Source: a virus | Taxonomy: Duplodnaviria > Heunggongvirae > Uroviricota > Caudoviricetes | Direction: 5' to 3' (one strand) | DNA: 17,041 bases | IMG/VR virus record: IMGVR_UViG_643348547_000011 | Part shown: positions 5,320 to 12,555 of the stretch, piece after piece | Layout: every line of letters starts with the position of its first letter | Position numbering within the stretch: position 1 is the stretch's first letter | Notes under the pieces: generated by a model | What the model was told of the DNA's origin: nothing | The model's database searches: none | What the model saw: the letters and a program-made list of their open reading frames with translations, nothing else | Program-made: the position numbers and the translations under genes

Positions 5320-5715
5320 TCAACGTATTATCTCTGGCCTTTCAGGCCAGGTTATTTCTGGCACTAAAGATAAATCCACTGACATTAAACTATTAACATA
5401 TTCCTTCCATAATAAAAGATTGCCCTTGTTATTTTCACTTATAATACCGAGTAACAAATCTGACTGCCAGTTCATAATTAAACTATTAGCACTATCCAGC
5501 AGACACTGTCTTTCATTCTCTGCCTCACGAAGTAATTCATCATGTGTTTTTGGCGGCTGCGTAGGTGACGAAAGCTTTCCCTTATCATAGAACCAACCAA
5601 TTCTTACATTATCGGATACAGGTATAACTAACGCATTAGTTGGTTGCCAGGCACTCTCACCATCCCATACAGCAATATTGGTAACAACACCATTTTCTAT
5701 AACGGCATAGTTCAT
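5320..5715 (-). CDS. tfa: Tail fibre assembly protein (Tfa/U-type chaperone)
   Basis: ORF track 5320..5730; I prefer the ATG at 5713-5715 (MNYAVIENG...), which overlaps the upstream tail-fibre stop (TGATG) and has GGGAG 8 nt upstream. The C-terminal region (LLLWKEYVNSLMSVDLSLVPEITWPERP) matches the conserved C-terminus of lambda/Mu/P2-type Tfa proteins (WKKYRVLLNRVD...PDIEWP). Confidence 0.75.
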   Translation of the reverse strand: MNYAVIENGVVTNIAVWDGESAWQPTNALVIPVSDNVRIGWFYDKGKLSSPTQPPKTHDELLREAENERQCLLDSANSLIMNWQSDLLLGIISENNKGNLLLWKEYVNSLMSVDLSLVPEITWPERPEIIR

Positions 5716-6665
5716 CACGCATACTCCCAAATGATTGCAATACCAGCCATTCCGCTACCTCCGGCACGCTGCTGCGTCGCTCCACCGTAGACACAGGCAC
5801 CACCGCCTCCACCACCATGGCCATTAGCATTAATACCTTCGCCTACAATGGCTTGTGACCCAGCCCCCGCACCAAGGATTGAATCGCCGCCAGGCCCCCC
5901 CATCGCCAGACTGCCGGAATACCGAACGCCTGGTGAGCTATAACCGCTTCCAGACCCGATAATATTGGCACCTGTAAATCCCGGCTCAGTATATGCTCCA
6001 TACGGACCAACAACCCCAGGAGCAGTGCCTTCAGCAAGAACATTCCCACCAAGACCACCTTTGGCAATTATGGTATTGCCGAAAGAGGTTGCTCCCCCGG
6101 GAGCACCAACCGACGCACTTGCACCAGTGCCACCATATCCTATTGTCACAGTAGTTACGGTTGGATTATCCACGCGAGCTTTAACATACTCCCCAGACAT
6201 CCCCCCGCCACCACAAGCAGCATTATTGGGATAACCGACCTGACAACCACCACCGGCCCCACCACCACCAACAATTTCAACAATAATAAATCTTGTGCCT
6301 TTTGTCGGAGTGTATGTACCTGAGCTTTTAAACACCTGACACTGTATAAGCCTCCCGGAGCCATCTCCCAAACCAAGATTTTCGAGAGCCGTTTTCACCG
6401 TGCCGTCCGATTTGATATCACCAAACGGATTCTTGCGGCTTAACAGCAGCGCACGAAGCGCGGTAAGCAACTGGTCGTGCCGCTCCTTCTCCAGGCTGGC
6501 ACCGGAGGCCTCCACCACGCTGCAAAGTTCTTCCTGCAACATGTCAAAGTAGTCATCATCCAAATCGGTGGCAGGTGTGCCGGTCTGGGGGTTACCACGG
6601 GTAAAACCGTTCTTACCCGCGCCGAACTTATCCTTCTGCGCGGTTTTCGTGTCTATACGATGCAT
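5715..6665 (-). CDS. stf: Side tail fibre protein (e14 StfP-like N-terminus, glycine-rich distal part)
   Basis: 316-aa ORF with GGAG 6 nt upstream of the ATG at 6663-6665. The N-terminal ~95 aa ([47 protein letters not shown]...) is the conserved constant part of e14/Mu-type fibres as I recall it; the rest is Gly-rich fibre sequence. Followed immediately by tfa. Confidence 0.8.
6363..6388. other. Hin/Gin/Cin/Pin-type 26-bp inversion crossover site inside the tail fibre gene
   Basis: ATCTCCCAAACC-AA-GATTTTCGAGAG: both 12-bp half-sites approximate the Hin-family half-site TTnTCnnAAACC (about 10-11 of 12) around a 2-bp AA core, the same core as hixL. It falls at fibre codons ~93-101 ([10 protein letters not shown]), the constant/variable junction where Mu, P1 and e14 carry their crossover sites. 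Confidence 0.5.
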
Positions 6666-6668
6666 GGA

Positions 6669-7253
6669 TTACTCCGGATATTTAAAAATTACGTAGGTAT
6701 GCGACGGGCAGAGTTTGTTAAGCACACACTCGACAACGGTGTCACCCCAGATACGCAGTGCGGAATCACAGGGATCGCCACATGTCATCCAGGTGGTGTT
6801 GGTGGTGGTTGGCATGTTGACCTGCCAGTAATACCGCCATTCCGGCGCATTCACCGCGTCAGTACAGGCCGATGAGCAGGTGAACGTGCTTTTGTCGTAT
6901 CGCGTGATGGTGGCATCTGGTCTGCCCAGGGCAGCAAGCTGTGCAAGATAAAAATCCTCGTTGATGCCACCCGCCAGGTTAACCTTCGCATCCAGCCGTT
7001 GCTGACGCTGGCGAAGGGTCTGTGTCCCTGCGGGAATACATTCATCCGGCAGGCCGCACAGACGCTCCCAGCGATTTATCAGTTCGGTGGTGGTGCGCGG
7101 ATCCAGCTCCCGCATCAGGGCATCCGCACGCTGATGAACACGAGTTAATGACGGTGCCGCACCGGCAATCGCCGGATCGCTGGCTGACCACGCCGGACCG
7201 GGCGGCAGCAGCGCCGACAACAGACGGATGTAATCATCGTTTGTCACGTCCAT
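6669..7253 (-). CDS. Phage tail protein, DUF2313 / YmfQ-like (Mu gp48-like)
   Basis: 194-aa ORF ([23 protein letters not shown]...), the same length and N-terminal character as e14 YmfQ; it sits between the baseplate J-like gene and the tail fibre, as in e14 and Mu. Confidence 0.75.
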
Positions 7254-8302
7254 GAAATCGTCCCCAGAACTGCCAGCTCATTTTTTGCAATGGAGATATT
7301 GTCCGCTGGTGCAAGCAACTGATGGCTGTATTCCCCGTTCGCACCGGAAATCGCTTCACTGATACGCGACACCTTCAGTTCTCCCTGCGGATAACCATCA
7401 CGCAGCAGGAACGAACGCAACTCGGCGGTGATGGCAGCCCGTATTTCCGGTGTGTCCGGCGTCACACGGATATGAAAATCCACCGTATGTGCCACCGGCC
7501 TGAACACATACAAATCAGAGCCTGCCACCGGGGCCAGTGGCTCGATATGTTGTCTTGCCGCCGTTTCCGTTGATTCTTCCGGAATGGGATTAATCAGGTC
7601 ACTGCTGGCAATCATCACACCGACAGTTCCCGTTCCCATCCAGTGACGGTATGTCCATGCGCGGGTAATGCCGGGCACTTCTTTAGCCCAGACGACATAG
7701 TCCCCGTCAGCCCCGCCCTGCGGCGTCCAGTAATACCGCTCAATGACGCGGGCGCGCCACGTTTCCAGATCTTCAGTATCGAATCCGCCAGTCAGGGTAT
7801 CTGCAACACCGGAAGACGGCAGACCATTCACCGGCGTGACCAGGATTAATGCCGTACCGTCGTCAGCGTTACCGACCGCGCCTGTAGTTGAGCAAGTGAT
7901 CGGCACACGCAGGACACCACCGGCGCTGGTTGCATCGGCAGTTGCCGTGTACTGAACCAGGTCATCGCGCTGAATCACGCTCCCGGCAGTCACCTTCAGG
8001 CCATCGCTGACACCTTCCCAGCGCATATACCCGCTGGCAGCCGTGGCCCCCTTGCGCGGACACCGTTTCATCGCAGCATGTCGCGCCAGCCAGGACTCAT
8101 CGCACAGGTCAGGCAGCATATTCATTGCCAGATAATCGATGTACCCGTAAACCGTATGCAGCGCTGCCGCATACACCTTTGCCCGCACGTCTTCATCCAT
8201 GCGCCGGAGCGTGTCGCTGACGTCCAGCCTGGCGAATAAATCGTTACGGAGCATACTGATATTTTCTGCCAGCGTCGGGCGCTGAAATTCACTGTCCGCC
8301 AT
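7244..8302 (-). CDS. Baseplate J-like protein (Mu gp47 / e14 JayE-like)
   Basis: 352-aa ORF with 10-bp and 14-bp overlaps to its neighbours, typical of coupled phage structural genes; size and position match baseplate J family proteins. Confidence 0.75.
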
Positions 8303-11666: not shown

Positions 11667-11681
11667 ATAAACTCCGTACAT

Positions 11682-11703
11682 AAAAAATCCCACCGGAGTG
11701 GGA
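11682..11703 (-). terminator. Intrinsic terminator-like hairpin between the tape-measure remnant and the gp43-like gene
   Basis: On the minus strand: TCCCAC-TCCG-GTGGGA followed by TTTTTT (A-run at 11682-11687 on the + strand); it lies in the 60-bp gap between the tape-measure stop (11727-11729) and the gp43-like start (11666). Confidence 0.45.
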
Positions 11704-11726
11704 CTCATTAACAGATTAATTTTTCA

Positions 11727-12555
11727 TTACCTGCCAAAGCGCGTATAGCCAACATCATGGCTGACATCAAAACCGCTGGATCGCGTTTCCATAACCCGCA
11801 TACCCGGAGGCGAATTCACAAAAGAGACCTTGATCTCACCATCAACTTTTGGCGCAGAAGCTTTGTTAATCATGAAGGGATTCGGGCCTGTGGCATCGGA
11901 GGCGTTGTTTGACTGAGCCGGATCTACCGCCGGATAAGGTGTGTATCCCCGTGCCGGTATTCCCGTCCCATAAGCATCATAAGCACCCGCCCCCCACTGC
12001 ACCGAGTTAATGGCATCGACCGTGTCACCGGAACTGTCGGTAAACCACTCAATAATTGGCTTCAGCTTGTCCCACATATCCTGAAACCACTTAACAACCG
12101 GCCCCCAGTTATTGATCACCATCCCCAGCGGCGACCAGGCAAAAACTTTCTTAAGGAGTTCCCAGCCAGTCTCAAAATAAGGACCAATGGTTTCCCAGAG
12201 TTTCTTAAAATAAGGTCCGACAACATCCCAGTTAGTGATAATTAATCCCGCAGCCAGGGCTATCGCCGTCGCAATCATGCCAATCGGCGTCATCGACATG
12301 AGCCTGCTGACAATACTGATGGCACTGCCAACGCCCATCAATCCCAGTTTCAGAATCGCAAGACCGGCAGCAAGCCCGACGACGCCGCGAATAACCCGGG
12401 GATTTTCATCCGCAAACTTCGTGAATTTTTCCCCCAACTCCCCCAGCCATTGCGTGATATTTTTGGCGTCACCAGAAAATGCGCCGCCAATAGCCGCAAG
12501 GCCGTTAGTTGCGGTCCCCGTCATTGCCTCCCACAGGTTGGACAGCGTACCAAGC
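11727..12555 (-). pseudogene. Tail tape measure protein, 3'-terminal fragment truncated by the IS629-like element
   Basis: The ORF track entry 11727..12740 is chimeric: codons upstream of 12556 lie inside the IS right end. The remaining ~275 codons (hydrophobic central stretch plus W-rich C-terminal region) look like a tape-measure C-terminus and sit directly upstream of the baseplate genes. Confidence 0.65.

Follow-up and report, generated by a model that had tools for sequence, protein, structure and literature searches.

The 17,041-nucleotide (nt) stretch of DNA analysed here (the window; IMG/VR virus record IMGVR_UViG_643348547_000011, Caudoviricetes) carries, on the minus strand at 5320-12555, a phage tail module made up of eight complete genes and one tape-measure fragment. 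We conclude that this module is very probably the baseplate-and-fibre end left over from an ordinary SfV-type Escherichia coli prophage, the rest of which was lost very recently via a deletion associated with the insertion sequence (IS) IS629. The window matches E. coli CE10 (O7:K1) across all 17,041 bases, except for three substitutions and two indels, and its position in E. coli is the island between ssrA and ileY. In CE10, nothing but the cargo block, IS629, the remnant of the tail module, and fragments of the island is found between these two genes. Practically the whole of 1-12555 is the cargo-plus-tail end of a single prophage integrated at ssrA. The initial annotation of the window had listed nine consecutive genes from the gp43-like gene to tfa and offered two explanations for them: that the truncation is recent, or that the genes are kept for some other use. 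The number of complete genes is eight, while the ninth is the tape-measure fragment (11727-12555, 276 of 611 codons). The remnant is a defective (grounded) prophage, which is already annotated and belongs to a well-known family.

The prophage-side edge of the deletion lies within the tape-measure gene, which in full length measures 1836 nt in SfV, SfI, SfII, and two intact prophages (L002 of strain 3-72, and L006). In the window, this gene is cut at codon 335 of 611, and the distal 45% remains (minus strand; PHROG 17727, 7.6e-113) without a start codon or a promoter of its own. As had been claimed, the gene is cut at an IS: the fragment stops exactly at the end of a 1310-bp IS629, and homology to intact prophages ends at 12555-12557, i.e., precisely at the IS end. 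This element (IS3 family; 12556-13865, minus strand) was recognized by its inverted repeats, the Pfam domains rve and HTH_Tnp_1, and its RefSeq name. It carries orfA (13485-13811, minus strand) and orfB (12598-13488, minus strand) between 25-nt inverted repeats (12556-12580 and 13841-13865) that are 92% complementary, and it points the same way as the tail genes; a programmed frameshift is annotated in RefSeq, where the element is named IS629 in isolate AF57. A simple IS629 insertion normally leaves a 3-4 bp duplication, and IS629 is known to drive rearrangements (PMC3271280). Reading the flanks directly, we found no target-site duplication, the flanking triplets being AGC and ACC. On the far side of the IS lies the 5' part of a ypjA-like AIDA autotransporter gene (13866-15334, minus strand; six Pfam AIDA repeats, 1.7e-51) whose C-terminus is lost, in agreement with the RefSeq description "AIDA repeat-containing protein, missing C-terminus". 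Because the duplication is absent and the genes on both sides are truncated, IS629 bridges a deletion or is a product of IS-IS recombination, rather than a simple insertion. The break in the ypjA-like gene marks the other edge of the deletion.

The origin of the module is evident from its relatives. Over 86% of its length (from the fibre N-terminus to the breakpoint), it shows 97.1-97.7% identity to SfI, SfII, and SfV DNA; gene order and lengths agree with SfV orf14-orf22, the eight complete genes being collinear with orf15-orf22. These three are serotype-converting phages with contractile tails of the Mu kind; they are viable, inducible, and related to e14 (PMC3636060, on SfI). An even closer relative is the prophage of strain B-JRPT-4119, which is apparently intact, having a full-length tape-measure gene along with all tube, sheath, head, and lysis genes. 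The block from gp48 to gp43 (5040 nt) is 100% identical to this prophage, and the whole of 6669-12555 shows a single difference, a synonymous one in the tape-measure fragment. The identity stops abruptly within the fibre gene, where a 200-bp stretch with 11 differences gives way to unrelated sequence. Beyond the breakpoint on its upstream side, the intact E. coli relatives continue with the rest of the tape measure, tail chaperone, tube, sheath, neck, HK97-type head, and terminase genes, and they further carry lysis, Q antiterminator, replication, immunity, and integrase modules. In the SfV-group phages (SfV, SfI, SfII, and SfIV), as here, an O-antigen-modifying gene sits just past the fibre genes. 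However, whereas SfV-type phages have upstream tail genes, the remnant has nothing upstream of the tape-measure breakpoint. It also differs from the SfV group in the cassette formed by the fibre C-terminus and tfa, in its cargo (an acyltransferase plus an EcoRII-type restriction-modification system versus gtrABC), and in its integration site (ssrA versus thrW).

The reading frames of the module are intact. All eight minus-strand open reading frames (ORFs) are uninterrupted over 5320-11708, confirming the reported lack of internal stops. Gene-by-gene alignment to SfV, SfI, SfII, and the prophage of strain 3-72 (the fibre C-terminus and tfa being compared with strain 3-72 only) gave zero gap columns and zero stops in every gene, including the tape-measure fragment, and thus revealed none of the hidden frameshifts that the initial annotation had named as a possible counter-indication. 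The overlapping starts and stops described there hold for six junctions (4, 1, 1-4, 14, 10, and 1 nt, from gp43 to tfa), but gp48 and the fibre gene are separated by a 3-nt gap and the tape-measure and gp43 genes lie 59 nt apart. Similarly, GGAG-type Shine-Dalgarno motifs precede most starts but not every one. The genes are probably intact because the deletion is too recent for disabling mutations to have accumulated.

The distribution of the deletion junction also points to a young event. Both junctions, tape-measure::IS629 and that at the other IS end, occur in no more than 4 of the 5,426 complete E. coli genomes, namely those of CE10, N32, AR_0013, and AF57. All four have them at the same locus and are near-identical to the window, with a handful of changes in 17 kb, which shows vertical inheritance in one host lineage. 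Strain MS 119-7 (hit H18) was considered as a fifth truncated member and rejected, as its prophage is complete and its IS3 and IS21 insertions are unrelated. Across the 8.7-kb remnant, the five sequences (the window plus four genomes) differ by five single-nucleotide polymorphisms (SNPs), of which two are synonymous and three nonsynonymous (fibre G153S, gp45 A129V, and gp44 D343A). CE10 and N32 additionally share an in-frame 3-bp deletion (6259-6261) in the glycine-rich part of the fibre, which groups them apart from the window, AR_0013, and AF57. At position 9314 (gp44 codon 343), the window and the B-JRPT-4119 prophage have T (Asp), while the four junction genomes and all outgroups have G (Ala); this pattern could be due to homoplasy, a small recombination tract, or the place of the window strain in the clade. 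In AR_0013 and AF57, a group II intron encoding an ltrA reverse transcriptase/maturase interrupts IS629 orfB (window position ~13078); the IS is intact in the window, CE10, and N32.

The 3:2 split of changes within the clade fits omega = 1 (P = 0.42-0.87) and is marginal under omega = 0.12 (P ~0.095); for this small number of mutations, a complete lack of nonsense codons has a probability of ~0.83. The changes within the clade therefore fit neutral drift and weakly disfavour an omega of ~0.1, the level observed among phage lineages. The comparison with intact prophages that had been proposed, i.e., the ratio of nonsynonymous to synonymous substitution rates (dN/dS), was carried out against SfV, SfI, SfII, and the strain 3-72 prophage. 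The pairwise values were indeed low, mostly 0.05-0.25 for the complete genes, but they were uninformative on host selection: the tape-measure fragment gave 0.15-0.20. Because this promoterless, start-less fragment shows the same values, the low dN/dS reflects inherited phage history. We thus rejected dN/dS against intact orthologues as evidence of selection, given the equally low values of the dead fragment and the zero divergence from the closest intact prophage. Overall, the alternative of recent truncation is supported by the identity of gp48-gp43 to an apparently intact prophage, by a junction confined to 4 of 5,426 genomes, and by a dead fragment that is as clean as the complete genes, while no support was found for retention for another purpose.

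Family searches confirmed that tube, sheath, head, and lysis genes are absent from the window, and none were present within 20 kb on either side in CE10. None of the four clade genomes was among the best matches to the missing segment from tape measure to terminase, nor among those to a segment comprising the N-terminal half of the tape measure plus the tube. Since lists of top matches alone could miss a diverged copy, we also used a chimeric query that joined the restriction-modification block to the tail-chaperone, tube, and sheath genes. This query matched a single place (the restriction-modification genes only) on all four clade chromosomes, compared with two to three places in other strains, and the baseplate block was single-copy in these four chromosomes. 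Inspection of the genome beyond the window, as the initial annotation had suggested, thus found none of the missing structural genes in the 20-kb CE10 flanks. The split but complete prophage that it had set against a truncation also did not appear, no SfV-type tail-assembly, tube, or sheath genes being detected by megablast on the four clade chromosomes. The single place for the chimeric query and the single-copy baseplate indicate that the prophage was deleted, not split.

What remains almost certainly does not work as a tail module, considering that a Q antiterminator, a late promoter, the tube, and the sheath are missing, that the tape-measure fragment is unusable, and that a hairpin precedes gp43. 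This terminator-like hairpin, a 9-bp stem followed by a U-run (11685-11706, minus strand; consensus scan; fold -22.1 kcal/mol, z = -2.85), sits in the 59-nt spacer between the tape-measure stop and the gp43 start, and the SfII annotation places a putative rho-independent terminator at the equivalent position. Consensus scans of the module gave 8 promoter-like sites versus 6.7 expected, i.e., no excess over chance. Read-through from the co-oriented IS629 is the sole source of transcription that could be imagined for these genes. With only a promoterless tape-measure tail and without a late promoter or antiterminator, tube, or sheath, no tail, tailocin, or excision is possible. A 337-codon ORF (11727-12740, minus strand) with a GTG start within the IS629 end runs in frame into the tape-measure fragment and might give a fusion product.

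These data very probably reflect the following history. The ancestor was a temperate myophage of the SfV/SfI/e14 type, in which early genes of the lambdoid kind are combined with a head of the HK97 type and a contractile tail of the Mu type, and it was integrated beside ssrA. An IS629-bridged deletion then removed everything from the middle of the tape measure onward, including its N-terminal half, the tail chaperone, tube, sheath, neck, head, terminase, and lysis genes. The same event also took the Q antiterminator, replication, immunity, and int/xis genes and the distal attachment (att) site before running on into the ypjA-like gene, leaving behind a complete Mu-type "simple baseplate" gene set, the fibre, its chaperone, and the prophage cargo. 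Deletions of lethal lysis and other lytic genes would be favoured, and the fibre end, lying between the edge of the deletion and the cargo, could be kept by linkage to the latter, which comprises an O-acyltransferase, a GIY-YIG nuclease, and a restriction-modification system of the addictive kind. The survival of this particular end is thus most likely explained by linkage to cargo that the host may keep or cannot easily lose.

A question related to this history is how often such a baseplate remnant occurs. SfV-type baseplate modules were found in 1,082 genomes and the tube region in 896. The gap between these numbers was considered as a sign of many baseplate-only remnants, and this was rejected since it mostly reflects a divergent tape-measure variant in complete tails. 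Sampling 60 evenly spaced records from the 1,481 that matched a gp48-to-sheath query, we found the full gp48-to-sheath span in ~60%, the full span with a divergent tape measure in ~12%, and many e14 fragments of the K-12 type, comprising gp48 and part of gp47; a single row was baseplate-only. This row is E. coli ET120 (locus L011, 4722-14079), an independent remnant in which gtrABC, tfa, the fibre gene, and gp48-gp43 are preserved and directly abut nin-region genes (a metallophosphoesterase fragment, NinH, and RusA). As in the window, gp43-gp48, the fibre, tfa, and O-antigen cargo are kept, and the genes for head, sheath, tube, tape measure, and lysis have been lost; however, the edge lies just upstream of gp43 without any IS, the site is near sbcB/dacD, and the cargo is gtrABC. 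The recurrent choice of this end may reflect linkage to cargo together with selection against lytic genes, with the window cargo adding a restriction-modification system.

Two known systems offer further comparison. The defective prophage e14 of E. coli K-12 (jayE, ymfQ, stfP, and tfaP) is an internally deleted remnant of the same phage family that keeps the gp48-like ymfQ and fibre genes; of the gp48-to-sheath query, only positions 1-1363 find a match in K-12, where a portal fragment adjoins them. It is more decayed, as gp43-gp46 are gone and gp47 is a fragment owing to an internal deletion from portal to gp47, while int and immunity are kept. The window remnant, in contrast, keeps the whole baseplate and has lost int and immunity. 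R-type tailocins depend on self-regulated genes for a sheath, a tube, a full-length tape measure, and lysis. Although their simple baseplate (e.g., that of the R2 pyocin), with its hub, spike, wedge, and fibre components, is homologous (PMC11915804), the remnant has only part of the tape measure and lacks sheath, tube, and lysis genes (searched in the window and the 20-kb CE10 flanks, and for sheath and tube also on the four chromosomes).

Several observations weigh against a mere leftover of a recent deletion. What is retained corresponds precisely to a complete simple baseplate together with the tape-measure C-terminus, a noticeable fit that may be a coincidence. ET120, as a second independent remnant with baseplate, fibre, and O-antigen genes, implies some retention bias, either selection or linkage, and tail-fibre genes, as well as transposase genes, are enriched in incomplete prophages (PMC7744054). 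Moreover, the sample of five SNPs is too small to argue against moderate purifying selection; the tube and sheath search was a megablast search restricted to chromosomes, which is blind below ~85% identity and to genes on plasmids; and, with IS629 co-oriented with the module, read-through transcription is conceivable.

One alternative is domestication, in which host selection would keep the baseplate and fibre as a free complex for receptor binding, as an adhesin, as a decoy for related phages, or as part of a tailocin-like weapon. Eight intact genes with coupled translation signals, the completeness of the Mu-type baseplate set, the like content of ET120, and the reported fibre-gene enrichment would all suit such a role. 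However, a module identical to a circulating intact prophage has had no time for demonstrable selection, the dead tape-measure fragment is equally conserved, and the changes within the clade are mostly nonsynonymous or indels. Promoter signals, a Q antiterminator, and genes for lysis, sheath, and tube are likewise absent. Baseplate-only remnants are also rare (~1 of 60 sampled records versus ~72% with the full sheath-to-gp48 span), and incomplete prophages are depleted in "plate", portal, terminase, and lysis genes, i.e., "plate" genes are preferentially lost (PMC7744054). We therefore consider domestication very unlikely. It is extremely unlikely that an IS629-mediated inversion or transposition merely moved the remainder, leaving a phage that is rearranged but complete or complementable: IS629 is multicopy (~30 places per genome) and a driver of rearrangements (PMC3271280), but the chimeric query found a single place on each of the four chromosomes, none of the four was among the best matches to the missing segments, and the other flank of the IS is a truncated chromosomal gene rather than phage DNA.

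An older remnant might instead have been refreshed by gene conversion from superinfecting SfV-like phages, or have served as a cassette donor to them. The family is mosaic, with tape-measure and fibre variants shuffled among ~1,400 genomes; partners are plentiful, as SfV-type prophages are found in roughly a fifth of E. coli genomes; and the identity to B-JRPT-4119, which under such a scenario would reflect exchange rather than descent, ends abruptly within the fibre gene. Yet the junction is limited to one near-clonal group, implying a young event, and no ends of conversion tracts are visible within 6669-12555, which makes a refreshed reservoir improbable. Even if true, it would be a passive by-product rather than a function of the module. 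Given the mosaicism of the family, a passive role as recombination donor for related phages is plausible also for a remnant left by a recent deletion.

All eight complete genes matched the expected tail families in Pfam and PHROG, in the order of the Mu gp43-gp48 homologues, fibre, and fibre chaperone. The cryo-electron microscopy structure of Mu identifies the tube initiator as gp43, the hub as gp44, the spike as gp45, the wedges as gp46-48, and the fibre with its chaperone as gp49/50, and it places the tape-measure C-terminus inside the hub (PMC11915804). Next to the tape-measure fragment, the gp43-like tube initiator gene ("DNA circularization protein", 443 amino acids (aa); 10338-11667, minus strand; Pfam DNA_circ_N, 7e-34) is open up to 11708, and its likely start is the ATG at 11667, which is preceded by a GGAG motif and is also the PGAP start. 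It is followed by the genes for the gp44-like baseplate hub (359 aa; 9262-10341, minus strand; Pfam GpP-like_1st, Gp44-like_2nd, and GpP_4th; PHROG 177, 8e-171) and the gp45-like central spike, or baseplate assembly protein V (182 aa; 8714-9262, minus strand; Pfam Phage_Mu_Gp45, 1.5e-24), the latter with an AGGAGG Shine-Dalgarno motif 8 nt upstream. The wedge genes come next. That of the gp46-like wedge protein 1 (141-142 aa; 8289-8717, minus strand; Pfam GP46, 6e-33) begins with ATGATG, so that its start is at 8714 (the PGAP choice) or 8717, and it is 100% identical to SfI at the nucleotide level. The gene of the gp47-like wedge protein 2 (Baseplate_J, 352 aa; 7244-8302, minus strand; Pfam Baseplate_J, 4e-54) aligns without gaps to SfV, SfI, and SfII, and the gp48-like wedge protein 3 (YmfQ, 194 aa; 6669-7253, minus strand; Pfam Phage_Mu_Gp48, 1e-26), the fibre-docking subunit, has an accession identical to that of intact prophage L006.

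The tail fibre (316 aa; 5715-6665, minus strand; PHROG 863, 1.8e-75 over residues 1-315; Pfam Gly_rich_2) combines an SfV-type N-terminal baseplate-docking domain of ~105 aa with a glycine-rich C-terminal domain. The N-terminus shows 93-95% protein identity to the SfV, SfI, and SfII fibres. For the C-terminal receptor-binding part plus tfa, no full-length match was found among sequenced phage isolates. PGAP/RefSeq labels of the fibre are inconsistent: some records call it an "StfP pseudogene" lacking the C-terminus, in part accompanied by an extra "glycine-rich domain protein", whereas in strain 3-72 it is called a "carbohydrate kinase". We rejected the pseudogene label as a sign of decay, since the gene is a single continuous ORF of 316 codons (951 nt), equal in length to that of the intact prophage L002. 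The label is an annotation artefact, with PGAP splitting a chimeric yet continuous ORF. The start of tfa overlaps the fibre stop by 1 nt; this gene, encoding the tail fibre assembly chaperone (131 aa; 5320-5715, minus strand; Pfam Caudo_TAP, 2.5e-23; PHROG 188), aligns without gaps to its counterpart in the intact prophage of strain 3-72 at 97.2% identity.

Converging on tfa is the gene of an O-acyltransferase (4253-5278, plus strand; Pfam Acyl_transf_3), probably an O-antigen-modifying lysogenic-conversion gene. With its match to PHROG 3333 (O-acetyltransferase, 1.7e-40), the product is likely an O-antigen acetylase. The gene has a low GC content (~33%) and is intact in the window, N32, AR_0013, and AF57; in CE10 only, it is frameshifted by an extra T at 4648. 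The remaining cargo consists, by Pfam assignment, of an EcoRII-type restriction endonuclease (1-1209, plus strand), a C5 cytosine methyltransferase (1244-2677, minus strand), and a LEM-3-like GIY-YIG protein (3080-3853, plus strand). This block (1-3853) recurs, at 99.6% identity, on the fibre side of an intact prophage of 41 kb in strain 15.03CC, at its very end, and the acyltransferase holds the same position in the intact prophage L002; both observations indicate that the cargo is phage-borne. The block shared with 15.03CC includes the last 28 nt of ssrA although that prophage is thrW-integrated, which means that a vestigial ssrA att core travels with the cargo between prophages of different sites. 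At the other end of the window, 13866-17041 represents the remains of the resident ssrA-ileY island (CP4-57-like), in which, besides the truncated ypjA-like gene, a pinH-like resolvase fragment (15673-15939) and a DUF5508 (ypjC-like) gene (16409-17041; frameshifted ypjCB in RefSeq) are found.

The locus provides a clean and datable case of IS-mediated prophage "grounding", which matters little past good annotation. It also demonstrates that intact ORFs and low dN/dS versus phage orthologues do not prove host selection, the truncated tape measure serving as an internal control. It is highly unlikely, though of some consequence if true, that read-through from IS629 or the fusion ORF could yield free baseplate-fibre complexes, which might serve as a surface-binding decoy, an adhesin, or a host-range cassette for incoming SfV-like phages; or, in a milder version, that baseplate and fibre genes are systematically kept by linkage to O-antigen-modifying and defence cargo, in which case such linkage at the prophage end would account for the surplus of fibre genes reported from cryptic prophages. 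Two independent remnants with O-antigen or defence cargo hint that linkage, not function, may explain the persistence of fibre genes in cryptic prophages.

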